Of a DNA stretch of 64,000 bases, positions 3,103 through 55,037 are shown piece after piece (position 1 is the stretch's first letter; every line of letters begins with the position of its first letter). Under the pieces are notes generated by a model. The model saw only the letters and a program-made list of their open reading frames with translations, did not search any database and was not told the DNA's origin. The position numbers and the translations under genes are program-made. The stretch comes from a virus (Duplodnaviria; Heunggongvirae; Uroviricota; Caudoviricetes; Thumleimavirales; Hafunaviridae), in the IMG/VR virus record IMGVR_UViG_2974793816_000001, positions 12,760 through 76,759 of that record. One strand, given 5' to 3'.

Positions 3103-3155
3103 TCGCGCTTCTCGCTGAATAGCTCTCTGACTAATCTTTTACACTTTCATTTATC

Positions 3156-18104: not shown

Positions 18105-21032
18105 TTAGTCCATCATCTCCTTGAGTTCTACCAGCTCGATGAGGAGGTCTACGTAGATTGTCTCAAGGATTTCTTCCATCCGTGTTTCCTCGAACCCGAG
18201 AACAGAGAGGATTGTCTCATCAAGCGTCTTCTTCGGCTCGAATCCATCCCCAAGTTCATCCTCTGCTTCGGGGAAGTGACGCTCCAATGCCGCCGTCTGT
18301 TCGTCGGAAAGGTTATCGGGGTTGACGTTACTCGCCATTTGCTTGACGAGACTCGGAGCCTCCACGTCGTGAACGTCCTCGAAGCAATCCATTAGTAGCT
18401 CCTTGTCCTCGTCGGAGAGCCGGTTCGGGTGGATTGTGTAGAACCGATTTTGCGTGTATTTCCGGTACTTCGTCCAGCCTCCACGACCGGGGACTCGGGT
18501 GAGAAGCATCTGAAGGAGTCCGAATGATGAATCAAACCAGAGTGAGAGAACCTTCGACTCGGCTTCGTTGAGGTCTGAGTGCATCCACATCCGGTGAGAC
18601 ACCCGTGGCTTGCTGGTGAAGTAGACGATGTGGGACGTACCGGGAGCTGTCAAGTCCACCGTCTCTGGAATTGAGGTGTGGGCGGCATTATCGACGATGT
18701 GGGACTCCCACCCATCAGGAATCCCATCTTCTTCTGACAGCGAGAGGAACCTATCGAGTTCATCAAACTCACGGACGACGGTGTGTTCTTCGAGGTCTGT
18801 AATATCGAGCTTCTGTCGGTATGGCTTCCGTAGGAAGTATGGCTCAACTGCATCCCGAGGAACAGTTACCGTCTCTCCTACGTGACGGTGTTTAACCTCC
18901 AACTTGTCCTCGTTCGCTGATTTTACCTGCCATACGTCGCTTTTCCGAAGGTTAGTGTCGGGCGCACCGATACATCCGCCCGTCCACGGGTGACTACTCC
19001 CACCGCGAGTGAGGCCAGCATCGAGGTGCTGTATCTGCGTGAGGTTATCCTCCTGTTCGAGAATATCACCCCATAGCTGGAACAGGGAGTGGTTCTGGAC
19101 TGCGAATGGAGAGAACAAATTGTGAGTGTCCATCTGCTCCCTCGGAACCCGCCAAACCGTAGCGGTGGATGACCCATCCTCGATGGTTTCGACCTCTCCG
19201 GCTTTCTCGTCTTTAAGTTGTTCAGAGACGTTCCGAATCAGGGAGCTATCTACATCTAATCCATCAAGGGAAACGTAGGTCGTGCTTGCATCCTCGGTGT
19301 TCCCCTTCCGGGCGATTATCATTACTTCTCGAAGGTCAGTATCCTCGGAGAAGTTGGGATTGTCTTCTCGTGCGAAAATATACTCAATATCGTAGTCGTT
19401 GAGAAGCATCTCCCGAACGCCGCTGTCGGTGGATTTGTTGAGGACGGTAGCGGGAATGACAGCCGCTATGCGTCCTCCTTCATTGAGGAATTTGTCTGCG
19501 AGATAGAGGAAGTATGAGCAGTAACTCATCTTCCCGTGGATGTGACCCTTGTTGTCTCGTCGGGAGAATCGGTCACGGAGTCGGTCTTTGTATCCGTCAG
19601 CAAATCCTGCGACAGACTCTTGCCGAGTGAAAGGTGGATTCATTATGACGGTATCCATCGTCTTCAGCTCCATCTCCTGACCAATCGCGGCGTCCATTGC
19701 CACGCTACCGGCCTCAATCGCATCCTCGCTCACGTCCGGTTTTTGTCCTTCTGCGAACTCGGAAAGACCTCGTTGTTCGTCTTTTTGTGGTAGAACAAAC
19801 GAGAGAGGGCTGATAGTGCTTCCCGGTGCGAGCTTAGTAGAGTCCTCGATGCCGATATTCACTTCGTCAGTTTCGTATATGGGCGCTTGGAGAGCAAGAT
19901 GGATACAACTCAGGTGAGCCGCGAATGGCATCACGTCAATTCCCGTAATGTCGTCTTCTACGAACTGTTGGTGCATCTTCTCAGTAAATTCGCTATCCAC
20001 CAACGACCGCTTTCGATTGTACGCCGCCGCGAGAAGACTTCCGCTCCCACACGCGGGGTCAAGGACTTTAGCATCAGACGAGTCGATACTGAGGTCAGCG
20101 AGAATCTGTCCCGGCTTGTTCATCGTGTAGTAAGCCGCGACCCGCTTCCTCGCCTCGATGGGGATTAGCTCGTGGAAGACCTTTCCGAGTACGTCGTGCG
20201 TGATTGACTCGGGACGAAGGGCGTAGATAGACTTGATAGCATCAATCAGGATGGTGATGCTGGTTTGTGGCAAGTCCTCCGCAATCCTGAATGAGAATAC
20301 TGGGGTGTAGTCAACTTCGAGTACGAGGTCGAAGTATTCGCTAAGGTCTTTTGGTGAGCCGAGTTTGTCGGGGTCTATCTCGGGGAACTCTTGAGCTGAT
20401 GATAGGACACGGTAGAACGTGATTTGGTTTACGAGAAGGAACCCTGCGGTCTTCTTTGCGGCTTCTCGTTCTTCTTTCCCCTCCGGGGACGCGCCGAGGA
20501 CGTTACGGAACAGGTTTTCTTTTGGTGCGGTTTCCAGTTCCTCATTCAGACGGTACGCCGTCTGTCGAAGGACGGAAACAACCTCGTCCGGGTCGGGTTC
20601 TGGTTTCCGCTCGTTCTTGATGTGCGAATCAAGCCATCGAGGGATTTCGTCCAACGAGAGGCTAACAATATCGGTAGGGGAGTCCCGGCGGAGGAAAGCG
20701 CAGGAGAATTTGTGGCCGCTGAGAACGGACTCTGCTGTATCTGTGAGCCGCGCTTGACCGCCATCCTGTTTCAGTTTTTCCGGGTAGCAGATTAGGAATG
20801 TACCTTCTACCCCGGTGAGCTGGCCGTAGTCTCTCGCCTCTCCGAATCCTTCCCATTTCTTGTTCTCCCATTTCGCTTCACCCACGAAGGTCATTCCGTT
20901 GACCTTGATTTGGAAGTCGGGCTGAGAGCGGGTTCCGGGTGTCGAAATGGAAACCTGCGTAGCGGCATTTACCCCGTTGTCTCGGAGGTAATCTGCCATC
21001 AAGTCGGTTATCCCATCTTCCGTAGCAGACAT
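18105..21032 (-). CDS. Type IIG/IIL restriction-modification enzyme (MmeI-like; PD-ExK nuclease fused to gamma-class N6-adenine methyltransferase and target-recognition domain)
   Basis: 975 aa. N-terminal PD...EAK motif (QPDFQIKVNGMTFVGEAKWE). SAM-binding motif LDPACGSGSLL and catalytic VIMNPPF. About 450 aa of C-terminal target-recognition domain. TATA AATTTATAG about 28 nt upstream of the ATG. Confidence 0.65.
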   Translation of the reverse strand: MSATEDGITDLMADYLRDNGVNAATQVSISTPGTRSQPDFQIKVNGMTFVGEAKWENKKWEGFGEARDYGQLTGVEGTFLICYPEKLKQDGGQARLTDTAESVLSGHKFSCAFLRRDSPTDIVSLSLDEIPRWLDSHIKNERKPEPDPDEVVSVLRQTAYRLNEELETAPKENLFRNVLGASPEGKEEREAAKKTAGFLLVNQITFYRVLSSAQEFPEIDPDKLGSPKDLSEYFDLVLEVDYTPVFSFRIAEDLPQTSITILIDAIKSIYALRPESITHDVLGKVFHELIPIEARKRVAAYYTMNKPGQILADLSIDSSDAKVLDPACGSGSLLAAAYNRKRSLVDSEFTEKMHQQFVEDDITGIDVMPFAAHLSCIHLALQAPIYETDEVNIGIEDSTKLAPGSTISPLSFVLPQKDEQRGLSEFAEGQKPDVSEDAIEAGSVAMDAAIGQEMELKTMDTVIMNPPFTRQESVAGFADGYKDRLRDRFSRRDNKGHIHGKMSYCSYFLYLADKFLNEGGRIAAVIPATVLNKSTDSGVREMLLNDYDIEYIFAREDNPNFSEDTDLREVMIIARKGNTEDASTTYVSLDGLDVDSSLIRNVSEQLKDEKAGEVETIEDGSSTATVWRVPREQMDTHNLFSPFAVQNHSLFQLWGDILEQEDNLTQIQHLDAGLTRGGSSHPWTGGCIGAPDTNLRKSDVWQVKSANEDKLEVKHRHVGETVTVPRDAVEPYFLRKPYRQKLDITDLEEHTVVREFDELDRFLSLSEEDGIPDGWESHIVDNAAHTSIPETVDLTAPGTSHIVYFTSKPRVSHRMWMHSDLNEAESKVLSLWFDSSFGLLQMLLTRVPGRGGWTKYRKYTQNRFYTIHPNRLSDEDKELLMDCFEDVHDVEAPSLVKQMASNVNPDNLSDEQTAALERHFPEAEDELGDGFEPKKTLDETILSVLGFEETRMEEILETIYVDLLIELVELKEMMD

Positions 21033-21530
21033 TGGATACTTCGTGATTTGGAGGTCGGGACTATAAATTATGTCACAGAGACATACCGGAGTGAGAAATC
21101 ACCTCGATGCGTCTGTTCACGAAAAGATTTCTTCGTGAGAAACGTCGCCGTTGTGTTGACGCTCTTTCTCCCACTCGATTTCTCCTTCGACTTTCCCGAA
21201 GATTTCCGAGGCGATGGTGCGGTCTTCGTAGTCGCGGTCTGGATTGTCCTTGATTTGCTCCAACTCGTGTTCCAAAAACGCGAGGTGTTTTGGGGACAAT
21301 TGCATATAAAGAACCACACACCGGGGGGTTATAAAACGGGGGGTAGTGATTTGGACTTCATTTCCCATCACTCGGTTGTGGAAACGGGGTGGTACACGCA
21401 CGGCATACGGCCCTATACCCTCCTGTTTTTTATAAGTAGGATTGGTAGTAGAGTGTAGAGAAGCACGCAGAACGGGATGTTCCCGGCAAAGGTAGCCGCT
21501 TTCAGGGCCGAAGGCCTCCTCGGTAAAGCG

Positions 21531-21577
21531 CGTCCTTGGTAAGGACGAGACCGGGGGTTCAAATCCCCCCTCAGGCT
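21531..21577 (+). other. 3' fragment of tRNA-Thr(GGT) (anticodon arm + T arm + acceptor 3' strand); putative attP core
   Basis: CGTCC-TTGGTAA-GGACG anticodon arm, GGGGG-TTCAAAT-CCCCC T arm, CTCAGGC acceptor strand. No complementary 5' acceptor strand or D arm upstream. Adjacent to the integrase. Confidence 0.5.
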
Positions 21578-21760
21578 TTCAGCCTTCGTGGGGCTTCTCA
21601 CCCCATTTTGCGTGCTTCTTGGACACGTAACAATGCGAACCAAGAAAGCACTCTACCCACAAACGGCCACCCCCGCGCCGTCGTGCGATTCCGTGAATTG
21701 TCAGGACACTATAACGCTGAACCCCGCGCGAGCGCGTATCCTCGGAGTGGGGGTCGGACG

Positions 21761-22957
21761 ATGAACCGCAACGACCCACTCGACAGCGTGGAAATGAGCG
21801 CGGCATCCGAGAATATACCACCCGCGCCCGAACCCATCGAGTTTGGCTTCCCCCTCGTGAGCAAACGCTCGCGCGAAGACCTCGAACAGTTCGGCCTCAA
21901 CATGGTACAGGACTACCACGACTTCAAAGAGGAAGTCCTGACGTGGCTCGGCAACTACGGGAAGAACCCCGACAAGTACGAAGGGCTGGCCCCCACCACC
22001 CTTGAGAGTACCCACTACAAGCTCGAAACCGTCTTCCGCTGGTTATGGAAATACGAGGGCCAATACACCACCACCTTCACGCCCGAACACGCGGATAAAT
22101 TCATCTCGCTGTTGAATCAAGCCGACTCGATGATTGACAGCACCGTACTCCACCACGCCAAGGACATAAAGCGGTACTTCCGCTTCTGTAACCACGCACG
22201 CGGGAAGGAGTACGATTGGGAACTGGACGTAGAACTCAGTCAGTCCAACGGCGGAGACGAACGCGACTACCTCCGACGCGCCGCGTTCGAGCCGCTGTAT
22301 CAAGCCGCGCTTCACCACTCGTCGGTCAAAAGCTACTACTCGTGTACCCCGGAGGAACGAGCAGAGCTGAAAACCTACGTCTCTCAGCGTCTCCAAGTCC
22401 CGAAAGAAAAAGTCGGGGCTGAGGAGTTCAAGAAAGCAAACTCGTGGAAGTATCCCTCGATGATAGCCGCGACTCTCGATACAGGGCTTCGACCCATCGA
22501 GGTGGGACGCGCCAAGGTGTCTTGGGTGAACCTCCAAGATAAAGAGCTGAACATCCCGAAGGACGAGTCCACGAAGAACGTCGGCCATTGGAACTGTGCG
22601 ATTCAGAAGCGCACGGCGAAGGCGCTCGAACGCTGGATAGACGAGCGCGACACGATGGAGAAGTACGACGGTCGGGACGAGCTATGGCTCACGCAGAAAG
22701 CCCGCCCCTACACCTCCGACTCGTGTAACGGCCTCCTTGACCGAATCATCAAGTCGGGGAACGTCCCAATTCCAGAACACCGGCAGGACGAAGTATCGTG
22801 GTACAGCATCCGTCACGGAGTCGCAACGTATTGGGCGAACCACGTCGGGCCTCACCACGCGAAAGAACAGCTCCGGCACAAGTCGGTGACGACGACGATG
22901 AAGTACCTCCACTCGGACTCCGACACCCGAGGGAGCGCGGTCGAACAAATCTGGTAA
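21761..22957 (+). CDS. int: tyrosine recombinase / phage integrase
   Basis: C-terminal region IRHGVATYWAN...LRHKSVTTTMKYLH gives the R...HxxR...Y catalytic signature. The ORF-track start at 21536 (TTG) would overlap the att fragment; the first ATG is near 21761. Confidence 0.75.
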   Translation: MNRNDPLDSVEMSAASENIPPAPEPIEFGFPLVSKRSREDLEQFGLNMVQDYHDFKEEVLTWLGNYGKNPDKYEGLAPTTLESTHYKLETVFRWLWKYEGQYTTTFTPEHADKFISLLNQADSMIDSTVLHHAKDIKRYFRFCNHARGKEYDWELDVELSQSNGGDERDYLRRAAFEPLYQAALHHSSVKSYYSCTPEERAELKTYVSQRLQVPKEKVGAEEFKKANSWKYPSMIAATLDTGLRPIEVGRAKVSWVNLQDKELNIPKDESTKNVGHWNCAIQKRTAKALERWIDERDTMEKYDGRDELWLTQKARPYTSDSCNGLLDRIIKSGNVPIPEHRQDEVSWYSIRHGVATYWANHVGPHHAKEQLRHKSVTTTMKYLHSDSDTRGSAVEQIW

Positions 22958-23425
22958 TCAGAGAGCTTCGACCGAGCGCACCCCGAGGTCGTTCAAGCGG
23001 TACTCCTTCTTTCGTCCATCCCCCTCGAAGGGGCGCTTCTCAACTACGTCACGCTCCGATAGCTCCCACAGAATTTGGCTCACGTCGTCGGGGTCTATAT
23101 CGCAGTCCTCACCAAGTGCGTCCTTGATTTGAGTCGTCGTATGCCAATCCTCTCCGTTGTGTTCGTACAGAAATTCAGCCATTTTCCGAGTACGCGACCC
23201 TTCCTCAAACGTAACGGTATCGGGTGGTTCCGTCTCACGCGATTCTATGTCTTCTCCGGTAATGTATTGAGTCAAATCAATCGGGGAGTCGGCCTCGATT
23301 GTGACTTTGATGTTTTCAACGGTATCGCTGAAACCAGTCTCCTCGATGAACTGGTTGAAGGCGTGGAGTCCCTGTTCACCGGACAGTTCTAATGTCATCA
23401 CACCATCTGGCTCCTCAGATGCCAT
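22958..23425 (-). CDS. winged-helix DNA-binding regulator (possible excisionase/repressor)
   Basis: C-terminal ...EYRLNDLGVRSVEAL winged-helix-like segment. Adjacent to the integrase. Likely start at internal Met (MASEEPDG). Confidence 0.4.
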   Translation of the reverse strand: MASEEPDGVMTLELSGEQGLHAFNQFIEETGFSDTVENIKVTIEADSPIDLTQYITGEDIESRETEPPDTVTFEEGSRTRKMAEFLYEHNGEDWHTTTQIKDALGEDCDIDPDDVSQILWELSERDVVEKRPFEGDGRKKEYRLNDLGVRSVEAL

Positions 23426-23466
23426 AACCTGATATTCTACTGGGGGGTGTGAAAAAGCCACGGCTA

Positions 23467-23506
23467 CAAAATAAAAAAAGACCCCCGACCACGGGGGGTC
23501 GGGGGT
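23467..23506 (-). terminator. intrinsic terminator downstream of RtcB (hairpin + T-run on the minus strand)
   Basis: Minus-strand reading CCACCCCCGACCCCCCGTGGTCGGGGGTC followed by TTTTTTTATTTTG. Confidence 0.6.
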
Positions 23507-23519
23507 GGCAAACACTACT

Positions 23520-24884
23520 CTACTTCTTGAAGTTCATCACGGGCTTCAGCCGGTCAACGACCCCGGCAGTTGGGGTAATGTGTTCCTCGATAAGCTCCAT
23601 TGGCTTGTACGCTTCCGGCACTTCGTCGCCCGGAACCCGAGCAGAGTACGTCCCGTTGTCGTACATCCGCTTTCGAGTCTCGTCGGCGTCGAACTCCGAC
23701 CGCGCCCATCCACGGGAACCGAGTCGGCCCGCGCCGTGGGGAGCCGAGTAGTTGAACTCGGGGTTTCCGCGACCCTGACAAAGCAGGGTTCCGTCCTCCA
23801 TGTTCATCGGGATGGTGAACAGCTCACCGTCCTGAGCGCGGGTGGAACCTTTCCGAATCACCATGTCCTCGAAGTCCACGTAGTTGTGCGGAGAGTTGAT
23901 GAACTTGGTAATCGACGCATCGAGGGTTTCGGCCACCTCCTGAACCATCAGCAGGCGATTGAAGCTCGCGTAAGTCTGAGCGAGCATCATATCGTAGTAG
24001 TACCCGTAGGCTTCGCGGCCTTCGAGGTAATCGAGGTCGTTGTTCCGGTTCGAGTCCGGGGAGTACGACTCAATCTCGGAGCCGATACGCTCGATTTCCT
24101 CGCCCTCGTTGTAGAGGCGAATCTTCTCCCAATCGGGGGAGCCGTCGCGGTTCGTGTAGTGCTTCAACCGCTCGCTCATCTCGCCCCACTTCACGTCGGC
24201 GTCACGGTGTTCGGTCGCCTTCTCCTGCCAGTACGCCGCGACCTTCTGACCGAGGTTGCGGGAGCCGGAGTGAACGACTACCCACAGGTCGCCGGTCAGC
24301 TCGGACTCAGCCAACTCGATGAAGTGATTACCAGAGCCGAGCGTCCCGAGCGAGCGGAGCGCGTACCGTCTTCCAGCTCCAACTCGGGTACACATCTTCT
24401 TGAAGTAGTCCGGGTTGAACATCCCCTCGTCGCGGCTCTCGTAGTCGAAGTCCATCGCGTCGTAGAAGTGGAGTAGCTTCTCGTTGGCCTTCCACCACGG
24501 GAACGACCACTCCAAGTCCACCTGCGGTTCTTTGTGAACGCGACCCGTCCCCATCGGAATCCGGTCGCGCACCTCCTTGTTCACCTCACGGAAGTCGTCT
24601 ATGTCGGAGGGGTAGTCGCAATCCAACACATCGAGGCGGGCCGCCGTCATGCCGCACCCAATGTCTCCCCCGACCGTCTTCGGAATCACACGGTCAGTCA
24701 ACGGCATCGAGAAACCGACGATACACGCGGGGCCGAGTCCCCCGTGACAATCCGGCATGAACTTCACCGGGTTCTGGAACGCCTCGTGGTCAACCATCTC
24801 CTGTATCTCGTCTCGGAGTCCGTCTTCCACTTCTTCTTCTGGTAGGTGTACCTCTGCTGTCGTACTGTCTCCTTCTACAATCAT
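23520..24884 (-). CDS. rtcB: RNA-splicing ligase RtcB
   Basis: 454 aa with conserved RtcB segments (GGDIGCGMT, HSGSRNLGQ, NSPHNYVDFED, HGAGR). Confidence 0.85.
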   Translation of the reverse strand: MIVEGDSTTAEVHLPEEEVEDGLRDEIQEMVDHEAFQNPVKFMPDCHGGLGPACIVGFSMPLTDRVIPKTVGGDIGCGMTAARLDVLDCDYPSDIDDFREVNKEVRDRIPMGTGRVHKEPQVDLEWSFPWWKANEKLLHFYDAMDFDYESRDEGMFNPDYFKKMCTRVGAGRRYALRSLGTLGSGNHFIELAESELTGDLWVVVHSGSRNLGQKVAAYWQEKATEHRDADVKWGEMSERLKHYTNRDGSPDWEKIRLYNEGEEIERIGSEIESYSPDSNRNNDLDYLEGREAYGYYYDMMLAQTYASFNRLLMVQEVAETLDASITKFINSPHNYVDFEDMVIRKGSTRAQDGELFTIPMNMEDGTLLCQGRGNPEFNYSAPHGAGRLGSRGWARSEFDADETRKRMYDNGTYSARVPGDEVPEAYKPMELIEEHITPTAGVVDRLKPVMNFKK

Positions 24885-24946
24885 TAGGTTCTGTTTAGAT
24901 AGAGTGTATAACTCTGAGTGTTCTACTACGGTACTGTCTTAGTTGA

Positions 24947-25013
24947 GTGAACAACCTCGATGTGGTAAAACTCAAAGTAGGTAACTATCAGTAGGTAACT
25001 ACTAAGAGTATAT
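24947..25013 (+). promoter_or_regulatory. family-2 element (GAACAACCTCGATGTGGTAAA box + GTAGGTAACTA x2 direct repeats)
   Basis: Near-identical box to the element at 15551. Lies upstream of RtcB but in the opposite orientation. Confidence 0.35.
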
Positions 25014-25099
25014 GTCTAAGATAGATATTTCGCCCGCGTTATGCGCTCGCGCGAGCTTATTCGGATGTTTCGTCGTATAGTACCGATACGGTACTATAT

Positions 25100-25128
25100 G
25101 ACTTAAAGATGTTGATTTAAGTCTTTAA
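25100..25128 (+). promoter_or_regulatory. partial family-1 element (GACTTAAAGAT...TTAAGTCTTTAAT)
   Basis: Shares the palindromic TATA core but lacks the CTCACTCTAATAGACG arm. Confidence 0.3.
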
Positions 25129-25131
25129 TGT

Positions 25132-25344
25132 CTACTGAGGTGGCTCCAAAAACCGGAGAGGAACCGACCAGTTGCCGCTCATCATCCACACGAAGAACCA
25201 CGGATAGACGAACATCGTCGCCAGCATATTCAGAAGCGAAGCCACCAACACTCCGTAGAACGCGACCTCCAAGAACAGGAGCAAGAACGCCTGAGTCGCA
25301 AATCCAAGGTAGAACGAATAGAAGTAGGCTTTCTTGGATTTCAT
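25132..25344 (-). CDS. small membrane protein
   Basis: 70 aa with two hydrophobic helices. Confidence 0.35.
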   Translation of the reverse strand: MKSKKAYFYSFYLGFATQAFLLLFLEVAFYGVLVASLLNMLATMFVYPWFFVWMMSGNWSVPLRFLEPPQ

Positions 25345-25598
25345 CTATTCCCGAAGTTCGTCTCGCTGATGGGAACGCAGGAGAGGCCACCGCCGTCGTA
25401 AGCAACAGAAGCGTAGCACACGACGCCAGCCTCTCGGTCGATGAATCGGTCAACGGACTTCTGGTTGTCCTCGTAGACCTCCGTGGCGTCAGAAGCATCC
25501 GCCTTAATCGGTGACTCCTCGGGCTGTTCAGCAACACAACCAGCGAGAGCAATAGTCGATACAACCGCGAGAGCAAGTAGAATCTTTCTCCAGTTCAT
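25341..25598 (-). CDS. putative lipoprotein
   Basis: Signal peptide plus LAGC lipobox (MNWRKILLALAVVSTIALAGC). Confidence 0.4.
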   Translation of the reverse strand: MNWRKILLALAVVSTIALAGCVAEQPEESPIKADASDATEVYEDNQKSVDRFIDREAGVVCYASVAYDGGGLSCVPISETNFGNR

Positions 25599-25730
25599 TT
25601 TTTGATTGGTCTTGTGTGGTAGTTCACGCCGTGGTAGCCGGTCGTCGGAACGTCCTTCTCAATCATCTCGATGAGAGGCCACGGAAGCTCGTACCGACCG
25701 AATAGGTAGCCGCAGACGTTTCCGTTGTGG

Positions 25731-25991
25731 TCAGTTATCGCTTGAACCTTCGCGTCGTCGGGAATGGTAGGTGTCGTCATTCACTTCGATGATGTTGATT
25801 CCCACGTCAACCGTGGGGGGCCAGTTGAAGTCCTCGTCGTTCTTCAACCGGATGTAGTGGGCTACGTCCCCACTTTTCGTCCAGTAGAAGTCCGTCACGT
25901 CGTAGTGATAGGACTGGTCTTGGAACAGCGGAGGAAACTCGAAGTCGGAGTCTCCGGGTTCGGTAACAACCTCGATGAGTCCGTTCGTCAC
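25731..25991 (-). CDS. hypothetical protein
   Basis: 86-aa ORF in the minus-strand operon. Confidence 0.3.
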   Translation of the reverse strand: MTNGLIEVVTEPGDSDFEFPPLFQDQSYHYDVTDFYWTKSGDVAHYIRLKNDEDFNWPPTVDVGINIIEVNDDTYHSRRREGSSDN

Positions 25992-26416
25992 GGCTCAATC
26001 ACGGCCCGAGCAAGCCACTCCTTCGCCGTCTCCACCGGGTCAGAGTGTTGCCGATACTCCGACTCGGAGATACTGAACCGGATTTTCGAGATGGGGTCGT
26101 GAGCATCGTAGGACTTCAAGTTAGCCAAGCTCATCGAGTCAACTTCACACCGTTCGAGAATATCCCGGCGGGCTTCTTTCTCCACCTCGTTCCGAATCCG
26201 ATACAGCTCGTGGAACGTCTCCGGGGAGAAGGCTTCGTCGGGAAGCTCCTGAAGGAGCGCGTTCAGGTGGCGAGCCAACCGAACATCCCGAGAGGGTTCG
26301 ACCTCGGGAACGAAGTGCTTGAGTTCCCCAATATCGCCTGCGACTCCGTTCTTGATGGGTTCCTCTCCGAGCTTCGTCTGTTCCAGAAGCTCGTGGACTT
26401 GTTCAAGCCGATTCAT
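25988..26416 (-). CDS. hypothetical protein
   Basis: 142-aa ORF overlapping neighbours by 4 nt. Confidence 0.35.
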   Translation of the reverse strand: MNRLEQVHELLEQTKLGEEPIKNGVAGDIGELKHFVPEVEPSRDVRLARHLNALLQELPDEAFSPETFHELYRIRNEVEKEARRDILERCEVDSMSLANLKSYDAHDPISKIRFSISESEYRQHSDPVETAKEWLARAVIEP

Positions 26417-26960
26417 CGAAGTCCTCGTAGAGACGCGAAGCGGTCGGCCCGGTCTGGTCGTTGTATTTGTTCCCGTTTTCCTCCGAGTAAGCCACGTCCG
26501 GTGTGGTCTTCATGTCGTGTAGTGCGAGCTGGCAAATCCGCATCGACTCTCGTAGCTTGATGGGATACGAAGCCGCGTTGAACAGTTCGAGCGTCACCTG
26601 CCCCCGGAAACCGGGGTCGATGAAGCCCGCGTTGTGGATGAACAGGCCGAGTCGCCCGACTGAGCTACGTCCGTGGAGGATACCCACCTTGTCGTCGGGG
26701 ATGGTGATGTTCTCCTCGGTGTGAGCCAGCGCGAACTTGCCGGGAGAGAGCGAAAGCTCGCTGGTTCTTTCGTAGTGAGCCGGGTAGCTGTCTCGGTCGT
26801 CCACCTCCACCACGCCGGTCGCGGATGGAATCTTCAGCTCGTCTCCGAGGTGCAAATCCATCGAGGCGGGTTCGACGGCGAGAGGCTTCCCACCGCCCCG
26901 AGTCGCCCCGAGGTCGCCACGGCTAATTGACCGCTGAATATCGTGCTGTGACAGAATCAT
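26403..26960 (-). CDS. dcd: dCTP deaminase
   Basis: MILSQHDIQ start and GFIDPGFRGQVTLELFN motif. The ORF-track start at 27023 overlaps thyX; Met at about 26960 gives an ATGA overlap instead. Confidence 0.75.
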   Translation of the reverse strand: MILSQHDIQRSISRGDLGATRGGGKPLAVEPASMDLHLGDELKIPSATGVVEVDDRDSYPAHYERTSELSLSPGKFALAHTEENITIPDDKVGILHGRSSVGRLGLFIHNAGFIDPGFRGQVTLELFNAASYPIKLRESMRICQLALHDMKTTPDVAYSEENGNKYNDQTGPTASRLYEDFDESA

Positions 26961-27661
26961 GGTGCGCGAAGGCTGTTTCCTTTCAGGTGTTCCTCGTAGG
27001 CGTTGAACACGAGCGGCGACCACTCCTTACACTCGTCCAGAACCTTCGTGGCGAACTCGCGGGCTTCCCATTGGGCCTTCATGTTCTTCCGAAGGTCGAA
27101 GAAGTGCATCAGCGTCCGAGCGTTCGCGGAGAACGTCATGTCAACCTCTACGCCGATGGGGAGAACGAACCGGGCGTCCTCTTTCGCCATCCCCTGCTCG
27201 ATGAGCCGTTCGTACAGCTCCACCGAGTTGAGGAAGTGCCCTTCGAGGGCGTCCTTCCCGGTGAAGTTCTGAGCCGGGCCGTCGTACTGACCGAGAACCA
27301 CGTCTTCAGCTCCGGGGTTCTTCTTGTCACCCGGCGGAATCACTATGTCCTTCTCCGAGAAGTCGCAGTACCGCTGGCTCTGAACGTCGAAGCTCATGTG
27401 ACGGTGGCGCGTCACCTGAGCCATAGCCGACCGCGAGAGTCCTTCAACAGCGAAGAACGCTTGGATGTGTTCAAACGGCCCGAAGTGGCCGCGTCGGAGT
27501 AGTTCACCGAGCAGTTCCTCGTGGCTCTTGGGCGTCCCTTCGAGTGCGTCCTCGACGGTCTTGCCGACGAGAGATTCGCTCATGTAGTCGCCCCGAGCGG
27601 CCAGTACCGGAACGTCGTCGGGGTTCTGCGTGCTGTATTCTGTCTTGAGTTCGACTTTCAT
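26957..27661 (-). CDS. thyX: flavin-dependent thymidylate synthase ThyX
   Basis: RHRHMSFDVQSQRY motif (ThyX RHRxxSxxxxSxR signature). Confidence 0.85.
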   Translation of the reverse strand: MKVELKTEYSTQNPDDVPVLAARGDYMSESLVGKTVEDALEGTPKSHEELLGELLRRGHFGPFEHIQAFFAVEGLSRSAMAQVTRHRHMSFDVQSQRYCDFSEKDIVIPPGDKKNPGAEDVVLGQYDGPAQNFTGKDALEGHFLNSVELYERLIEQGMAKEDARFVLPIGVEVDMTFSANARTLMHFFDLRKNMKAQWEAREFATKVLDECKEWSPLVFNAYEEHLKGNSLRAP

Positions 27662-27826
27662 TCGTGGTAGTAAGAAACGGAAAACTCGATTTCGGTCATT
27701 TCCGGCTGGTAGTGATGGGTTTCCTGAAACCCCTCGATGCGGCAGTCCTCTCGTAGTACGTCGCTGAGAACGTCAGCAAGTAGTGATGCGATTTCGTCTT
27801 CGGTAACGGTTTGATAGCGTCTCATA
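27659..27826 (-). CDS. 55-aa micro-ORF translationally coupled to thyX (ATGA overlap)
   Basis: Not in the ORF track. MRRYQTVTEDEIASLLADVLSDVLREDCRIEGFQETHHYQPEMTEIEFSVSYYHE. Its stop overlaps the thyX ATG. Confidence 0.35.
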
Positions 27827-27863
27827 GATGTATCTCTCTGGTTAGAATCTCGCAGAAGTCGCT

Positions 27864-27918
27864 CCTCACTCTAATAGACGTGGAGCAAGGACTTAAAGAC
27901 TTCTATTTGAGTCTTTAG
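27864..27918 (+). promoter_or_regulatory. family-1 repeat element between the polB 3' end and the thyX operon start
   Basis: CCTCACTCTAATAGACGTGGAGCAAGGACTTAAAGACTTCTATTTGAGTCTTTAG. In reverse orientation the TATA core lies about 60 nt upstream of the micro-ORF ATG. Confidence 0.45.
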
Positions 27919-30506
27919 CAGAACGCGGCCAGCCCGGTTTGGCTCTGACCTTCAATCGCGGCGTCAACGTCAATGTCCACCGCTTCGAGGATGTCCACCA
28001 TCGGGTTGCGAACGAGCGTGTCTTGCATCCGCTTCACGTCCACGGTGAGCTGGTCACGGAGGTCGTCCAACTGCGCCCCCCGTTCGTATCCAATCACATC
28101 GAGCGTGTCTTCTCCGAGCGTCGTGTGCTTGAGGTAGACCCGCTTGACCGTGTTCCCCTTCCCGAAGTTACAGTCCTTGATGAACTTGTTAGCGTAGAAC
28201 GCCGCTCGGGGCGAAGCGCCCTTCGGCGTCCCGTCAGACCACGAGTAGTCTTCAAGCTCTTTTCCAAGGCCGCCGGGGATTCCGATGAGGTCGAAGTCCG
28301 GGTTCGAGGCGTCGATGCGCTCGGCTCCCTCTCGGATGATGCGGCGAATCTCGTCTTGAGAGCCACCACGAACAATCGTCTCCAGCGTCTCCCGCTGAAC
28401 TTCCTTGGTGAGCTGAGCCGTGTTCGCCTTCTTACACGGGTAGCCGGAGATGGAGAGCTTGCCCTTCCCGTCCTTGATTTGGGCGTCGTAGTCCATCCCC
28501 TCGTCCCACACCTTCACGTAGGCGTAGAACTTCTTTTGCCCGGACATGAAGAAGTGAGAGGCGTACATCTCGATTTCAATGTCGAACCGGCACGGGTCGG
28601 TCGGCATCCCGTACTCGGCGGCGAGGTCAACGTACACCTCGTTGTTCAGCGTGTCCGTAATTGCGTCAGCGGCTTCGAGGCACTCTCGCTGATTCATCGA
28701 GCTGTCAAACTCGATATAGTTTGAGTCGGTGTCGCCATATGCCACATTAGCGATACTTTCCTCGTCCACGTACTTCGCAGTACGCTTAATCACCGCCTGC
28801 CCCGTAAGGGTGACAGCGGCGGCAATATCGGCGTCGTAGAGGAAGAACCGAACCCACCCAAGAACGCCGTAGATGCTGTTAACTATCGTCTTCCTGACAC
28901 TATACTCCTCGGCCCACTTCGACTTCTCCTCGGCGCTCAGCGAGTCGTCCTTCTTCATCTCGCCAGCGTGTTCCTTGAGGCGGAGAGCTTCGTCCACCAG
29001 TTCGCGGAACACGCCGTCGTAATCGAGTCGGAAGTAAACGTCGTTGGCCGCCTTCGCCACCGGAACGAGGTCGCCGCCTTCCTCCAGAACCGCGTAGAGG
29101 CCGTCGTCGTGTTCCTCCACGTAGAGCGGGTCAACCTTCGTCTCCGGGCTGGCGTTCAGCATCCAGAGCGTGTTCGGATACAGGCTTGCCAAGTCGATTC
29201 CGACGACGTTCTCCTTGAGGCCGTTGAAGGCGTCGAACACAAACGCTCCGTCGTAACTCCCGGTATCCTCGGGTTCGGTAGCCGTTGGCCCGGCATAGCC
29301 CTCCGTGTGTAGCTTCCGGCGAATCATCATCTCGATGAACTCGTTGTTCGCCGTGGTCTGCTCGAAGTCCAGACCAATCGTGTCACGGAGCGCCTTCTTG
29401 AACGCGAGGACGTTCGCGGCTTCGTTGATACCGACCGTGAGGAAAACGTCCTTCGTGTTGTAGTTGAGGAACTTGCGGGTGTTCTCCGAATACAGCTCGT
29501 AGAATCCCTTTTCCGTGTGTTCAATCTTCGCGTCTTCCAACTCCATCTGAGCGGCGTTGTCCAGCGCCCCGCTGACCTTCGTGAACTTGGTGTCCTTCCA
29601 AGCGTCCATCAGGTCGTAGCAGGTGCGTCCCTGAATCGTCGGGCCGCCGTACCCGGTGTAGGCGTTCCCGGTGCGGGAGAGGCGGTCAGCGTTGACACCG
29701 CGCTCTTTCATCCGCTCGATAACGAACGGGGTGTCGAACCCGTTGCTGTTCCACCCAACCACGAGGTCGGCGTCGATTTCCTGAACGTACTTGGCGAAGG
29801 AAGTGAGCATCTTCCGCTCATCCGGCTCGAACTTGAGCTGGCTGAGGTGTTCGAGGCCGAGGTCTTCCGGGTGGCTCACTTCATCGAGGTTGGTGTCGGG
29901 GAAGCGTTCCCCAAGCCCGTGACCGTCGAGGTCGATGAACCCAACGTATTCGTCTCGGTAGTTGTCGTGAGCGACGATGGAGAGGATACGCGCCTGTCCG
30001 TAGTCGGGAAAGCCCTCTCCCCGGTCGTCCGTCTCAATGTCGAACGTCAGAACACGGGGCGGGGCGTCCATCTCCACCGGCTCAATCTCATCGGGAGTGA
30101 CCCGACTCGATGGGACTCGAACGCCGGTCTTGATACCGAGGTCGATACGAAGCCGGTCGGTGTAGTCCACGTCGGCTTCCCACGACTTCGAGAAGAACGA
30201 GGCGACCTCGCCCATCTTCTTCGGGTTGTTGACGATAACCTTCACCAGCTCGTCGCCGTCAACGAGGCCGGTCTTGTCGGTGTCAGCGTACCCTTCGAGG
30301 TAGTCGTTGTCGAACGGGTCAACCTTCCCGCGTTCCTCGGCGGGGACGTAGAAGTAGGCGGGGAAGTTCTCCACCGTAACGGAGTCAGACTTCCCGGCTT
30401 CGGTTCGCCCGAACAGCTTGACTTTCGGGGTGTAATCCTCGTAGACCAGTTCGGTGTTAGTGATGTAGATTTCCTTCATTTCAAATGAGGCAGGCGCTCC
30501 ATCCAC
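27915..30506 (-). CDS. polB: family-B DNA polymerase
   Basis: 863 aa with the YGDTDS polymerase motif and an exonuclease domain. The first ATG (MKEIYIT...) is near 30480. Confidence 0.9.
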   Translation of the reverse strand: MDGAPASFEMKEIYITNTELVYEDYTPKVKLFGRTEAGKSDSVTVENFPAYFYVPAEERGKVDPFDNDYLEGYADTDKTGLVDGDELVKVIVNNPKKMGEVASFFSKSWEADVDYTDRLRIDLGIKTGVRVPSSRVTPDEIEPVEMDAPPRVLTFDIETDDRGEGFPDYGQARILSIVAHDNYRDEYVGFIDLDGHGLGERFPDTNLDEVSHPEDLGLEHLSQLKFEPDERKMLTSFAKYVQEIDADLVVGWNSNGFDTPFVIERMKERGVNADRLSRTGNAYTGYGGPTIQGRTCYDLMDAWKDTKFTKVSGALDNAAQMELEDAKIEHTEKGFYELYSENTRKFLNYNTKDVFLTVGINEAANVLAFKKALRDTIGLDFEQTTANNEFIEMMIRRKLHTEGYAGPTATEPEDTGSYDGAFVFDAFNGLKENVVGIDLASLYPNTLWMLNASPETKVDPLYVEEHDDGLYAVLEEGGDLVPVAKAANDVYFRLDYDGVFRELVDEALRLKEHAGEMKKDDSLSAEEKSKWAEEYSVRKTIVNSIYGVLGWVRFFLYDADIAAAVTLTGQAVIKRTAKYVDEESIANVAYGDTDSNYIEFDSSMNQRECLEAADAITDTLNNEVYVDLAAEYGMPTDPCRFDIEIEMYASHFFMSGQKKFYAYVKVWDEGMDYDAQIKDGKGKLSISGYPCKKANTAQLTKEVQRETLETIVRGGSQDEIRRIIREGAERIDASNPDFDLIGIPGGLGKELEDYSWSDGTPKGASPRAAFYANKFIKDCNFGKGNTVKRVYLKHTTLGEDTLDVIGYERGAQLDDLRDQLTVDVKRMQDTLVRNPMVDILEAVDIDVDAAIEGQSQTGLAAFC

Positions 30507-41339: not shown

Positions 41340-41411
41340 TAGGTTTCTCTGGTTCTGTTTGTCACTCGTTTCGGAGCCAACTACGGCATAGGTGTTTTCG
41401 CCGTAGAAAAG

Positions 41412-41480
41412 TCTGGACGGACGGAATCGAACCGCCCTTGGGAGGTTTACAGCCTCCGCGTTCGCCTTGAACACGTCCAG
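41412..41480 (-). tRNA. tRNA-Tyr (anticodon GTA)
   Basis: CTGGACG/CGTCCAG acceptor stem with a C1-G72 pair, which I recall as typical of archaeal tRNA-Tyr. GGAGG-CTGTAAA-CCTCC anticodon arm. GGCGG-TTCGATT-CCGTC T arm. The D arm is short. Confidence 0.65.
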
Positions 41481-41562
41481 AAAAGGGCCTATGATTGGGG
41501 GTGTCCACACCGCGTGAACGGGAGTGGCTACAAAGGTACGGCCAGCACCTCGCGTAGCCAAG

Positions 41563-41635
41563 CGCCGAGGGGAGGACTCGAACCTCCGACCACCGTGTTA
41601 ACAGCACGGCGCTCTACCAACTGAGCTACCTCGGC
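41563..41635 (-). tRNA. tRNA-Asn (anticodon GTT)
   Basis: Full cloverleaf: GCCGAGG/CCTCGGC acceptor, GCTC/GAGC D stem, CCGTG-CTGTTAA-CACGG anticodon arm, GGAGG-TTCGAGT-CCTCC T arm. Confidence 0.85.
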
Positions 41636-41663
41636 AAGAGAAAGGGGGGATTGAGGTGCTTGT

Positions 41664-41717
41664 CCTCACTCTATTAGATGTGGGACTAAGACTTAAAGAT
41701 ACCTATATGAGTCTTAG
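41664..41717 (+). promoter_or_regulatory. family-1 repeat element
   Basis: CCTCACTCTATTAGATGTGGGACTAAGACTTAAAGATACCTATATGAGTCTTAGAG. Confidence 0.4.
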
Positions 41718-41799
41718 AGTTCATCGGGAGGGATGCCCCGCTCGATGAAGTTAGTAGCAAGTGGAGAACCACAACCGGGAGAGATAGAAGTAGCAGACA

Positions 41800-42012
41800 T
41801 TACTTGTCGAAGCGGTTGACCCACGTAGAGAGATTCTTGATAGAGAGGCCATCCGCCCGAACGTCGTCAGCGAGAGAAGTGAGAGAATCCAGCAGAGTAG
41901 AATCGTTCCACGAGACGGGGTATTCGAGAGAGATGATGTCCACCTCGTCGCCGTTGCCGAAGGGTTCGAGAGTCGCTTCGAGGTCGCCGGAGGTCTGAGT
42001 GTAGGCAGTCAT
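41800..42012 (-). CDS. hypothetical small protein
   Basis: 70-aa acidic ORF. Its ATG overlaps the stop of an upstream 43-aa micro-ORF at 42010-42141. Confidence 0.3.
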   Translation of the reverse strand: MTAYTQTSGDLEATLEPFGNGDEVDIISLEYPVSWNDSTLLDSLTSLADDVRADGLSIKNLSTWVNRFDK

Positions 42013-42140
42013 GCTGGAGTGTTGATGGGGTTCACGACGTGGTTCGGCTCCGCAGTAGGAGCGAGCGGGACTTCCGGGCCGATTGGTTCGTTGAAGGAGA
42101 CAGCGCCGACGCCACCCGAGGGGGTATCGTCGTCGTCCAT

Positions 42141-42551: not shown

Positions 42552-42633
42552 TGTTTCTCTCTGGTTTCCAGCGGATAACCGCCGCTGGCACGGCTTAGGT
42601 AGCGTAGTACCGAATCCCCTATGACGGAGGGGA

Positions 42634-42705
42634 AGCAACCGGCGGGAATCGAACCCGCAGAGCGTGGCTTTCGCTTCGCCCCCATTGCCAGTAGGTGTCG
42701 GTTGC
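42634..42705 (-). ncRNA. tRNA-like element with non-canonical anticodon region (possible pseudo-tRNA)
   Basis: Perfect 7-bp acceptor stem GCAACCG/CGGTTGC, T arm GCGGG-TTCGATT-CCCGC and D stem CCTA/TGGG. The anticodon arm is replaced by an extended stem capped with a GAAA tetraloop, so no 7-nt anticodon loop exists. Confidence 0.4.
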
Positions 42706-42781
42706 GAGTCGCGGATTGCCGCACCCCCGCCCATCAAGGGGCAGGGTCATACGGCCCCCACCGGAGCGACTATCCGGCTCA

Positions 42782-42852
42782 TGCGACCGGAGGGAATCGA
42801 ACCCCCGTTGGCGGCTTGGAAGGCCGCCGTGATACCACTACACTACGGTCGC
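42782..42852 (-). tRNA. tRNA-Gly (anticodon TCC)
   Basis: GCGACCG/CGGTCGC acceptor, GCGGC-CTTCCAA-GCCGC anticodon arm, TTCGATT T loop. Confidence 0.85.
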
Positions 42853-42870
42853 AAAAAGGAGAACGAGCCT

Positions 42871-43005: not shown

Positions 43006-43007
43006 TC

Positions 43008-43880: not shown

Positions 43881-43924
43881 TTCGTAGATTTCTCTCTGGT
43901 CTGTTTGAAAGCCGATACACCGCA

Positions 43925-43999
43925 CGGAGACGATGGGATTTGAACCCACGCGCTTTCGGTTAGAAGCCGAACGCTCTGTCCGAGCTGAGCTACGTCCCC
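43925..43999 (-). tRNA. tRNA-Arg (anticodon TCT)
   Basis: GGGGACG/CGTCTCC acceptor (one G-U pair), GCTC/GAGC D stem, TTCGG-CTTCTAA-CCGAA anticodon arm, GTGGG-TTCAAAT-CCCAT T arm. Confidence 0.85.
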
Positions 44000-50823: not shown

Positions 50824-50833
50824 AATTGCTGGT

Positions 50834-50893
50834 CAGCTCATCAAAGGCCGGGGCGACCACCCCCCGACGACACCGAAAACAGGTGTTTCGCCG
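50834..50893 (-). ncRNA. hammerhead-like structured RNA element, copy 2 (5' leader of the lipoprotein gene)
   Basis: Minus strand reads CGGC-GAA-ACACC(UGUUUUC)GGUGU-C-GUCGGGG(GGUGGUCG)CCCCGGC-CUUUGAUGA-GCUG. It begins at the stop codon of the upstream gene. Confidence 0.4.
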
Positions 50894-53236: not shown

Positions 53237-53250
53237 TTTTCAGAAGTATC

Positions 53251-53313
53251 TGGTCGGCTCGTCAACAGCCGGGACGACCAACTCCCGACGACACCCACGG
53301 TGGGTGTTTCGCC
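53251..53313 (-). ncRNA. hammerhead-like structured RNA element, copy 1 (5' leader of the helicase gene)
   Basis: CGGC-GAA-ACACCCAC(CG)GUGGGUGU-C-GUCGGGA(GUUGGUCG)UCCCGGC-UGUUGACGA-GCCG. Covariation against copy 2 in stems I and II. Confidence 0.4.
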
Positions 53314-53488
53314 GTTATTCTTGCCAGTACCGCCGCTCTATGTTGATTATCTCCGATACATCACGCCGGGGCTTCGACTTGCCACGACGCCGCCAGCAAG
53401 CCTTCCTTCGAAGGGAGTAGAAATACTCGTAGTCGGCTTGCTCGATTTTCTCTATGTCTTCTTCCATACTACCGGGGTGACACCGCAG

Positions 53489-54939: not shown

Positions 54940-54974
54940 AGTTCTAACTCGTTTGCTCCTCCGCCTTTCCGTGG

Positions 54975-55037
54975 CTGGCATCATCAGGACAGTAGCGCCA
55001 CCTACTGCCGACACTCCCCGAGGGAGTGTTTCGCCAA
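54975..55037 (-). ncRNA. hammerhead-like structured RNA element, copy 3 (canonical CUGAUGA box)
   Basis: UUGGC-GAA-ACACUCCC(UCGG)GGGAGUGU-C-GGCAGUAG(GUGGCG)CUACUGUC-CUGAUGA-U-GCCAG. Preceded by a TAATTTAAATATC TATA box. Confidence 0.45.

Follow-up and report, generated by a model that had tools for sequence, protein, structure and literature searches.

An RtcB-type RNA ligase gene in Halorubrum tailed virus 10

The stretch of viral DNA analyzed here (the window, 64,000 nucleotides) corresponds to positions 12760-76759 of the record of Halorubrum tailed virus 10 (HRTV-10, MZ334496.1; Hafunaviridae, Haloferacalesvirus), which is most of that genome; a megablast of window positions 20000-28000 returned this record at 100% identity. 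At exactly 23520-24884 on the minus strand, the window holds an open reading frame (ORF) of 454 amino acids (aa), complete from ATG to stop codon, which is gp42 of the GenBank record and is labeled there "RNA-splicing ligase RtcB". Four tRNA genes, a tRNA-like structured RNA and three hammerhead ribozymes lie elsewhere in the same window (Table 1). Both the RtcB gene and the proposal that halovirus RtcB takes part in tRNA repair are already known, the former from the HRTV-10 annotation and the latter from earlier publications (PMC8651126, PMC8707807).

gp42 matches the Pfam RtcB profile PF01139 with 185.4 bits (E 2.8e-54; cutoff 27), and the match is full-length, with residues 32-453 covering profile positions 7-425 of 426. 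Across 23 homologues, D45, H47, D74, C77, N186, H187, H205, H333-N334, H383-GAGR387 and K453 are invariant. In single-sequence and profile alignments, residues of gp42 fall onto D65, H67, D95, C98, N202, H203, H234 and H404 of P. horikoshii RtcB, while the pairing of H333 with H329 and of K453 with K480 was assigned by motif and not by a printed alignment. The ligands of the two-metal site (D74, C77, H187, H205 and H333) and the GTP-binding N186 are all kept, as is the nucleophile motif H383-G-A-G-R387, whose histidine aligns to P. horikoshii H404. An AlphaFold model of gp42 (pLDDT 86.6, pTM 0.84) gave 16 significant matches in the PDB, every one of them an RtcB (best E 2.4e-21, TM 0.62-0.65). 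The original prediction, made from the DNA letters, had described RtcB as well conserved here, and the profile match, the invariant catalytic residues and the RtcB-only structure matches bear this out. Judged by its sequence and model, gp42 is an RtcB-type RNA ligase with a complete active site and is predicted to be active.

The similarity of gp42 to RtcBs of solved structure is low, at ~40 bits with a single sequence, 100 bits with a profile and ~20% identity. None of the NCBIfam RtcB equivalogs was matched at its cutoff (PRK09588, 98.4 vs 407 bits; TIGR03073, 63.8 vs 271.8 bits), and no gene resembling PrfH, the partner of the release-factor-H-coupled RtcB described by TIGR03073, was seen in the annotation. 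A reading of the viral enzyme as a non-host type of RtcB was considered and rejected, because chromosomal haloarchaeal RtcBs, which are 40-45% identical to gp42, are equally far from the P. horikoshii enzyme and lie among housekeeping genes (ArgRS, LigT, ribosomal proteins and Pus10). Thus, viral rtcB appears to be a diverged ligase of the host lineage rather than an exotic type. Outside the haloarchaea, the nearest relatives among the matches listed are bacterial RtcBs of ~380 aa with 30-35% identity.

Table 1. Features of the HRTV-10 window around and related to rtcB, in window coordinates
Feature	Position	Strand	Evidence and remarks
Partial tRNA-Thr-GGT	21507-21577	+	Rfam 34.8 bits; attP next to integrase
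Terminator-like hairpin and T7 run	23470..23506 (hairpin 23506-23481)	-	dG -21.2 kcal/mol, z -3.8; HF2 covariation
RtcB RNA ligase gene (HRTV-10 gp42, 454 aa)	23520..24884	-	ORF, Pfam PF01139, catalytic residues, AlphaFold model, GenBank annotation
TTATACA TATA-like box	24905..24911	-	27 to 21 nt upstream of RtcB ATG; conserved in HF2
Two tandem copies of TAGTTACCTACT	24976..25003	-	Resemble the promoter-region repeat AGTAGTTATACA; within the structured 247-nt region preceding RtcB
tRNA-Tyr (GTA)	41412..41480	-	ARAGORN; Rfam 39 bits; cloverleaf is the minimum free energy structure, z -3.8
tRNA-Asn (GTT)	41563..41635	-	ARAGORN; Rfam 74.3 bits; compensatory changes vs HF2 in anticodon and T stems
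IR3-like AT-rich promoter region	41681..41721 (approximate)	-	Upstream of tRNA-Asn; alignment with HF2 IR3, HF2 IR3 annotation, HF2 transcript F52 (PMC8707807)
tRNA-like structured RNA	42634..42705	-	Acceptor stem, T arm, D-like arm; GAAA-capped stem in place of anticodon arm
Long conserved hairpin	42715..42760	-	Between tRNA-Gly and tRNA-like element; positions covary between HF2 and HRTV-10
tRNA-Gly (TCC)	42782..42852	-	ARAGORN; Rfam 71 bits; present in only 9 of related records
tRNA-Arg (TCT)	43925..43999	-	ARAGORN; Rfam 66 bits
Hammerhead type II, copy C	50828..50893	-	Rfam 42.3 bits; unannotated paralogue of B; predicted cleavage after C50869
Hammerhead type II, copy B	53249..53314	-	Rfam 34.6 bits, own covariance model 77 bits; predicted cleavage after C53290
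Hammerhead type II, copy A	54969..55036	-	Rfam 54 bits; unannotated; predicted cleavage after C55010

rtcB is conserved throughout Haloferacalesvirus

rtcB is present in 41 of 41 Haloferacalesvirus records, at 88-100% amino-acid identity, and lies in this genus between Dcd and a module of winged helix-turn-helix (HTH) and integrase genes. Other members of the Hafunaviridae (HSTV-2, HRTV-7, HRTV-11, HCTV-6, HRTV-25 and HRTV-27) appear among the TerL relatives, and none of these is among the RtcB matches. Environmental contigs whose RtcB is ~60% identical keep the order PD-(D/E)XK nuclease, PolB, ThyX, Dcd, RtcB; beyond RtcB, they carry variable small genes or homing endonucleases, followed by an oppositely oriented integrase. 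In a crude neighbor-joining tree, the RtcBs of the Haloferacalesvirus clade, HCTV-5 and HGTV-1 form separate branches among the cellular haloarchaeal RtcBs, and this rough tree suggests at least three independent captures of RtcB by haloviruses. The RtcBs of HGTV-1 and HCTV-1 are only 39-42% identical to the Haloferacalesvirus copy and are probably independent acquisitions.

RtcB is missing from both integrated proviruses known in this virus group (Dyall-Smith et al., PMC7230728), which fits a function in the lytic cycle. Their lack of the gene would also be expected if rtcB were a mere passenger with no role on RNA in the infected cell, such as a host gene acquired recently and lodged beside an integrase or homing endonucleases. 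Such a passenger might well be found where rtcB is, next to the integrase/attP module, and halovirus rtcB genes are repeatedly flanked by homing-endonuclease genes of the GIY-YIG, LAGLIDADG or HNH type, including in VOLN27B. Yet a passenger would hardly be retained in every one of the 41 isolates and hold the same position in relatives at only ~60% identity, with all catalytic residues invariant and with a conserved terminator and upstream region. We therefore regard the passenger explanation as scarcely credible. A contig profile scan with the RtcB alignment found one Halobacteriales locus among the matches listed and gives little information on proviral contexts.

The attP of this module is the partial tRNA-Thr-GGT of Table 1, which the original prediction had missed. 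It adjoins a tyrosine integrase gene (21761-22957, plus strand), 600 nt beyond the RtcB/winged-HTH block, and corresponds to the attP published for the HF1 group.

rtcB probably closes a transcription unit that is opened by two tRNA genes

Fourteen nucleotides past the RtcB stop codon lies the strong intrinsic terminator that had been predicted there: a hairpin of 10 bp, eight of them G-C pairs, followed by a run of seven T. The stem carries a compensatory change from C-G to U-A in HF2 relative to HRTV-10. This hairpin is the probable 3' end of a middle transcription unit of ~18 kb, whose likely start can be placed by comparison with HF2. In that virus, the tRNA-Asn/tRNA-Tyr pair is preceded at a distance of 32 nt by the class I repeat IR3, and an 18-kb transcript from the IR3 promoter includes PolB and RtcB (PMC8707807). 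The distance from the conserved IR3-like region of HRTV-10 to the hairpin past RtcB is 18.2 kb. By synteny with HF2, tRNA-Asn and tRNA-Tyr likely open, and RtcB closes, a single unit of ~18 kb in HRTV-10. Thus, RtcB and the tRNAs appear to be more than co-located, since the HF2 transcript spans both and IR3 is conserved in HRTV-10.

rtcB may also have a promoter of its own. The TTATACA box noted in the original prediction is present and is kept in HF2, although it does not lie at about -30 as had been stated (Table 1). The heptamer occurs elsewhere in the window in only three more copies, at 45440-45475 with a spacing of 14-15 bp, in a region homologous to the repeat-embedded HF2 promoters T-17064/T-17022, which were mapped in that virus. 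Because of this recurrence, TTATACA is plausible as an internal rtcB promoter, possibly for a leaderless mRNA; the HF2 promoter paper reports no transcription start at RtcB.

The intergenic stretch of 247 nt that precedes RtcB (24885-25131, minus strand) is highly conserved in HF2 and contains several hairpins (z -2.9), two of which directly follow the gp43 stop codon; the region matched no Rfam family. Between gp79 and gp80, three copies of AGTAGTTATACA at 14-15 bp spacing (45436-45480, plus strand) mark a divergent promoter region, and related copies lie upstream of RtcB (24905-25003, minus strand), where TAGTTACCTACT occurs twice and AGTTATACA once. This resemblance hints at a regulator shared by the gp79/gp80 promoter region and the rtcB upstream region.

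The viral tRNAs are authentic and partly match codon demand

The original prediction had listed four intact tRNAs at 41412-43999, and all four hold up, three of them (Asn, Gly and Arg) with strong Rfam scores. The fourth, tRNA-Tyr-GTA, scores lower and is absent from the HRTV-10 GenBank record, where the gp72 coding sequence (CDS) is drawn across its position. Three lines of evidence indicate that it is nevertheless genuine. First, it carries the archaeal Tyr signature C1-G72/A73. Second, its HF2 homologue (Rfam 48 bits) is annotated as tRNA-Tyr. Third, several compensatory changes separate the anticodon stems of tRNA-Asn and tRNA-Tyr in HRTV-10 from those in HF2, with the anticodons unchanged. 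The annotated gp72 start appears over-extended across tRNA-Tyr (41385-41510, minus strand); the HF2 homologue of gp72 is shorter and starts downstream.

Codon usage was counted over 16,015 codons in 60 CDSs of the window and compared with chromosomal samples from two other haloarchaeal genera, which serve as proxies and are not the actual host. Per 1000 codons, the virus uses 45.0 Asn, 36.5 Tyr, 18.4 GGA and 2.4 AGA, against 20-21 Asn, 27-28 Tyr, 6-11 GGA and 0.5-2.1 AGA in the two samples. Usage is thus higher than in the proxy genes by 2.2x for Asn, 1.6-2.9x for GGA and 1.3x for Tyr, so that demand can account for tRNA-Asn and tRNA-Gly-TCC and, weakly, for tRNA-Tyr. The tRNA supplementation that had been predicted is therefore supported for these three and not supported for tRNA-Arg-TCT: AGA is equally rare in the virus and in Halorubrum, where it is used at 1.8/1000 (PMC7230728), and we rejected the codon-supplement reading of this tRNA. 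As the Asn figures imply, asparagine is unusually abundant in the viral proteins (45 vs ~20 per 1000 codons in the two chromosomal samples).

All tRNAs of HRTV-10 and HF2 are standard cloverleaves of 69-75 nt without introns, which bears on one possible role of the ligase. Viral RtcB could boost ligation of the splicing type, acting on host intron-containing tRNAs, on rRNA intermediates or on viral tRNAs with introns, and this would matter if host gene expression were shut down or demand were raised. The name given to gp42 in GenBank suggests as much, and gp42 belongs to the same subfamily as the chromosomal haloarchaeal RtcBs that lie among housekeeping genes; in addition, HGTV-1 has an annotated intron-containing tRNA-Ala and tRNA-Asp, the latter adjoining its RtcB. 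The intronless tRNAs of HRTV-10 and HF2 offer no such substrate, however, and the host enzyme is presumably stable through one infection cycle. Moreover, a Pfam scan that covered 28 of the larger window proteins detected neither a splicing endonuclease nor an archease domain, though these partners could be host-encoded. On balance, a splicing role seems unlikely.

In other haloviruses, the spatial association of tRNA genes with RtcB varies. The RtcB gene of HGTV-1 is 1.2 kb from the intron-containing tRNA-Asp and near genes for a TROVE (Ro-like) protein and a nucleotidyltransferase; this cluster (66069-73179 of the HGTV-1 record) resembles the bacterial Rsr-Y RNA-RtcB repair modules. In HCTV-1, the sole tRNA is encoded on the RtcB strand, 2.7 kb upstream of that gene. 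HSTV-2 carries a tRNA and lacks RtcB, so the association is a loose one.

A structured RNA separates gp75 from the prohibitin operon

The aberrant tRNA-like element of the original prediction is a real structured RNA, but no tRNA detector calls it a tRNA: ARAGORN made no call and Rfam gave no tRNA match at E<=1. Its acceptor stem (GCAACCG/CGGTTGC) spans 7 bp, its T arm (GCGGG-TTCGATT-CCCGC) is perfect, and its D-like arm contains GG. Together with the adjoining long hairpin, it belongs to a conserved structured RNA at 42634-42781 (minus strand), between the prohibitin operon and gp75. The HF2 counterpart (19660-19740, plus strand, of the stretch compared) is 80 nt long and combines a T arm and a hairpin of 17 bp with an acceptor stem of GCGACC/GGTCGC, so that the acceptor stem of HRTV-10 differs from that of HF2 by a compensatory change. 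This RNA could be a processing signal for RNase P or RNase Z. The annotated start of gp75 appears over-extended across the tRNA-like element (42549-42734, minus strand); its HF2 homologue is shorter and starts downstream.

We also considered whether the tRNA-like element or its 80-nt HF2 counterpart might be an intron-containing or split tRNA that needs RtcB. This was rejected, because too little sequence is left once the hairpin is removed. No bulge-helix-bulge motif was noticed by eye in either element, and no dedicated search for one was run.

Three hammerhead ribozymes lie in the early region

Three type II hammerhead ribozymes, absent from the original prediction, lie on the coding strand in intercistronic gaps of the early region. 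Copy B is the 'HHphage' variant of HF1/HF2, located 13 nt upstream of the helicase ATG (Perreault 2011, PMC3088659), whereas copies A and C are annotated as ribozymes in no record and represent new hammerheads that are predicted to self-cleave. With the Rfam RF02276 gathering score at 37, A and C score above it and copy B falls below, its HF2 orthologue reaching 41.1 bits; the conserved core of the family is present, and stems I and III covary. In an alignment of 19 hammerhead sequences, 95.2% of the cells in stems I and III are paired, and 11 of the 14 pairs carry compensatory changes; none of 500 shuffles was as good, and slid controls reached at most 51%. A divergent homologue of copy A in HRTV-14 (50.5 bits) has a fully compensated stem I. 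B and C have short core insertions like those of published salt-dependent variants.

B and C start directly past the stop codon of the upstream ORF, and the next start codon is 13 nt (B) or 4 nt (C) away, so that copy C fills the gap between gp97 and gp96. All 8 of the genus members sampled carry copy B ahead of the helicase gene. In the regions scanned, there are three hammerheads in HRTV-10, two each in HRTV-14, VOLN27B and HJTV-1, and one each in HF2, HRTV-24 and HRTV-5.

Several gene calls look like annotation artifacts caused by these ribozymes. The annotated start of gp103 (54979-54981) is an ATG within the CUGAUGA core of hammerhead A, and the in-frame ATG at 54936 is a more likely start. 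The tiny CDSs HRTV5_97 (HRTV-5, 3989-4081 of its segment) and gp98 of HJTV-1 (5569-5646) coincide with hammerhead B. Units of a hammerhead plus a downstream ORF also resemble variable cassettes (window 50473-51407 and 54490-55036). For example, HF2 lacks both gp98-gp97-hammerhead C-gp96 and hammerhead A-gp103, while copy C directly follows the helicase in VOLN27B (3064-3130 of its segment) and precedes a different ORF in HJTV-1 (3166-3231).

The presence of predicted self-cleaving RNAs and an RNA ligase in the same virus raises the possibility that RtcB rejoins early polycistronic transcripts cut by the hammerheads, or circularizes the segments between ribozymes. The ribozymes would cut long early transcripts at cassette boundaries, and RtcB would then circularize segments or splice cassettes. 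Candidate circles would run from A to B (1720 nt) and from B to C (2421 nt, carrying the helicase), and interchangeable stem II halves (UGGC/GCCA, CGGC/GCCG and CGGC/GCUG) would bring the ends together. If this were true, a DNA virus of archaea would produce stable or differently translated viral RNAs. The chemistry fits, in that hammerhead cleavage leaves exactly the 2',3'-cyclic phosphate and 5'-OH ends that RtcB joins, and such ends exist in vivo, because an HF2 transcript 5' end maps <=3 nt from the cleavage site of copy B (PMC3088659). In animals, RtcB is reported to circularize RNAs flanked by hammerheads (PMC7229834). The strong covariation of the three coding-strand ribozymes, their exact fit into intercistronic gaps and the co-conservation of copy B with RtcB in all eight sampled members are also in keeping with such a link.

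Co-occurrence was examined with Rfam and our own covariance model in the whole genomes of HGTV-1, HCTV-1 and HSTV-2, the early region of HF2 and five Haloferacalesvirus early segments. RtcB and hammerheads go together only within the genus, where both are universal and the pattern is uninformative, and we rejected co-occurrence as an argument, as it fails in two other RtcB-positive lineages: HGTV-1 and HCTV-1 contain no hammerhead or other Rfam ribozyme, and our covariance model agrees. HSTV-2 has neither RtcB nor a ribozyme. In addition, only one hammerhead was seen in the scanned regions of HF2, HRTV-24 and HRTV-5, whose RtcBs are nonetheless retained at 91-94% identity; one ribozyme yields no fragment that bears a 5'-OH at one end and a cyclic phosphate at the other, and hence nothing to circularize. 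Simple religation would be futile, since the ribozyme would cut again, and the halves left after cleavage are held by only a 4-bp stem II. Finally, a pattern scan of IMG/VR for hammerheads of the halovirus type gave 11 matches, 10 of them plausible ribozymes, located just upstream of ORF starts on unrelated phage contigs; these 11 loci have no RtcB in the flanking DNA, nor homologues of helicase, gp96 or gp103. Given the lack of hammerheads in HGTV-1 and HCTV-1 and the retention of RtcB in single-hammerhead relatives, action on hammerhead products is improbable as a conserved role of the ligase, and we consider it very unlikely overall.

Viral RtcB may reseal RNAs of translation during lytic infection

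We lean, without great confidence, toward a role for viral RtcB in resealing tRNAs or other RNAs of translation during lytic infection, with the viral tRNAs as a parallel measure of supply. According to this proposal, rtcB would have been captured from the haloarchaeal host lineage. By analogy with HF2, it would be expressed as the last gene of the ~18-kb middle unit, which is devoted to replication and nucleotide metabolism and opened by tRNA-Asn/tRNA-Tyr, and the TTATACA promoter may add to its expression. gp42 would join RNA 3'-phosphate or 2',3'-cyclic phosphate ends to 5'-OH ends, using GTP and Mn2+, through a histidine-GMP intermediate formed on His383 of the HGAGR motif. The breaks, with cyclic-phosphate and 5'-OH ends, would come from metal-independent ribonucleases such as host defense or toxin RNases or stress RNases. 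Resealing of host or viral tRNAs, and possibly of other RNAs, would then sustain translation, while the viral tRNAs in parallel would serve Asn, Tyr and GGA-Gly codons and the rare AGA codon.

RtcB joins a 3'-phosphate or 2',3'-cyclic phosphate to a 5'-OH directly and needs no kinase. The original prediction had remarked that no polynucleotide-kinase partner was recognized; it was correct in that none was found by Pfam in the 28 proteins or in the annotation, but this is irrelevant to an enzyme of this kind. That the ligase mends tRNAs cleaved by anticodon nucleases of the host is the standard guess in the literature on these viruses (PMC8651126, PMC8707807). RtcB is also widespread in phages (678 phage records), where it has been read as a means of repairing tRNAs cleaved by RNase effectors, that is, as counter-defense (PMC7824862).

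Several observations weigh against a repair role. The haloarchaeal hosts themselves encode, among housekeeping genes, an RtcB of the subfamily to which gp42 belongs, which leaves the need for a viral copy unexplained. To our knowledge, no anticodon nuclease has been described in Halorubrum, and we know of no substrate of the viral ligase. By Pfam, archease, RtcA, polynucleotide kinase, 2H phosphoesterase, Hen1 and TROVE are absent from the scanned proteins; gp68 gave only a weak match to calcineurin-like phosphoesterases (E 0.002), below the cutoff. The viral tRNAs are intronless, and codon and amino-acid demand by itself suffices to explain them, though demand was gauged against proxy genera, and RtcB-negative relatives such as HSTV-2 carry a tRNA, so that tRNA genes do not require RtcB.

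A different source of damage is also conceivable. RtcB might repair the collateral damage of a host shut-off ribonuclease that the virus induces or encodes, and so rescue the RNAs that the virus needs. Most early genes are without an assigned function, which leaves room for a viral RNase, and rtcB is kept in lytic isolates and lost in both known proviruses (PMC7230728). Nevertheless, no RNase domain was recognized in the window proteins scanned, and with no candidate nuclease the idea is speculative; we think it quite unlikely.

If the viral ligase does reseal RNAs of translation, a virus-borne RNA-sealing enzyme would point to a conflict between haloarchaea and their viruses at the level of RNA, of a kind that has not yet been observed. 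As of 2026, the functions of RtcB and of viral tRNAs are experimentally untouched in any archaeal virus (PMC13532342). Since the gene and the tRNA-repair idea were published before, our analysis adds no new object in this respect. Its contribution beyond what was known is modest but concrete: a corrected annotation (tRNA-Tyr and the starts of gp72, gp75 and gp103) and two unannotated ribozymes. It also adds evidence of several captures of RtcB by haloviruses and makes explicit a link between RtcB and ribozyme ends, which is so far disfavored.

Comparison with known RNA repair and ligation systems

gp42 shares its fold (TM 0.62-0.65) and active-site residues with P. horikoshii PH1602, human RTCB and T. 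thermophilus TTHA1785, and presumably uses the three-step GTP/Mn2+ mechanism of characterized RtcBs. Unlike those systems, the virus encodes no archease partner among the proteins scanned, and the identity is only ~20%. Chromosomal haloarchaeal RtcBs (Halalkaliarchaeum P0104, Halococcoides P0065) resemble gp42 more closely, being of the same subfamily, with 40-45% identity over the full length and the same catalytic residues. They differ from the viral copies in their housekeeping neighbors, and the viral clade is separate in the crude tree.

The functional paradigm for a viral RNA ligase that undoes host tRNA cleavage is the T4 pair of PNK and Rnl1, which counters the cutting of tRNA-Lys by PrrC to 2',3'-cyclic-phosphate and 5'-OH ends. 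T4 relies on end healing by PNK followed by an ATP-dependent ligase, whereas the RtcB of HRTV-10 belongs to a different family and seals directly, and no host nuclease is known for it; neither PNK nor Rnl is annotated or found by Pfam in the window. HRTV-10 also does not resemble a tRNA-splicing ligase system, given its intronless tRNAs and the lack of an archease or endonuclease domain in the proteins scanned. Likewise, it has neither the RtcA of bacterial Rtc systems nor, beside RtcB, the Ro/TROVE protein and Y RNA of Rsr-Y RNA-RtcB modules; HGTV-1 differs in this regard, with a TROVE protein near its RtcB.

Retrozymes and viroid-like circular RNAs likewise bring hammerhead products and an RtcB-type ligase together in one cell. 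In these systems, the RtcB-type tRNA ligase closes the circular RNAs. Unlike retrozymes, the HRTV-10 hammerheads are of type II, lie between cistrons of a double-stranded DNA virus at distances of 1.7-2.4 kb and are often single in relatives.

Phage RtcBs (of mycobacteriophages, SPO1-like Bacillus phages, Listeria A511-like phages and jumbo phages) are stand-alone enzymes in tRNA-carrying viruses, as in HRTV-10, and the homologues in the 678 phage records are 26-34% identical to gp42. gp42 differs from them in its archaeal host, its acidic protein, an insertion of the haloarchaeal type and an origin that is haloarchaeal rather than bacterial. RtcB and its proposed role in tRNA repair had been noted before in the HF1/HF2 group, HGTV-1 and Druskaviridae (PMC7230728, PMC8651126, PMC8707807). 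The RtcBs of HF1/HF2 and other Haloferacalesvirus members (HrrHF2_430) are orthologous to gp42, with 88-100% identity and the same genomic position, and do not differ from it in any material way.

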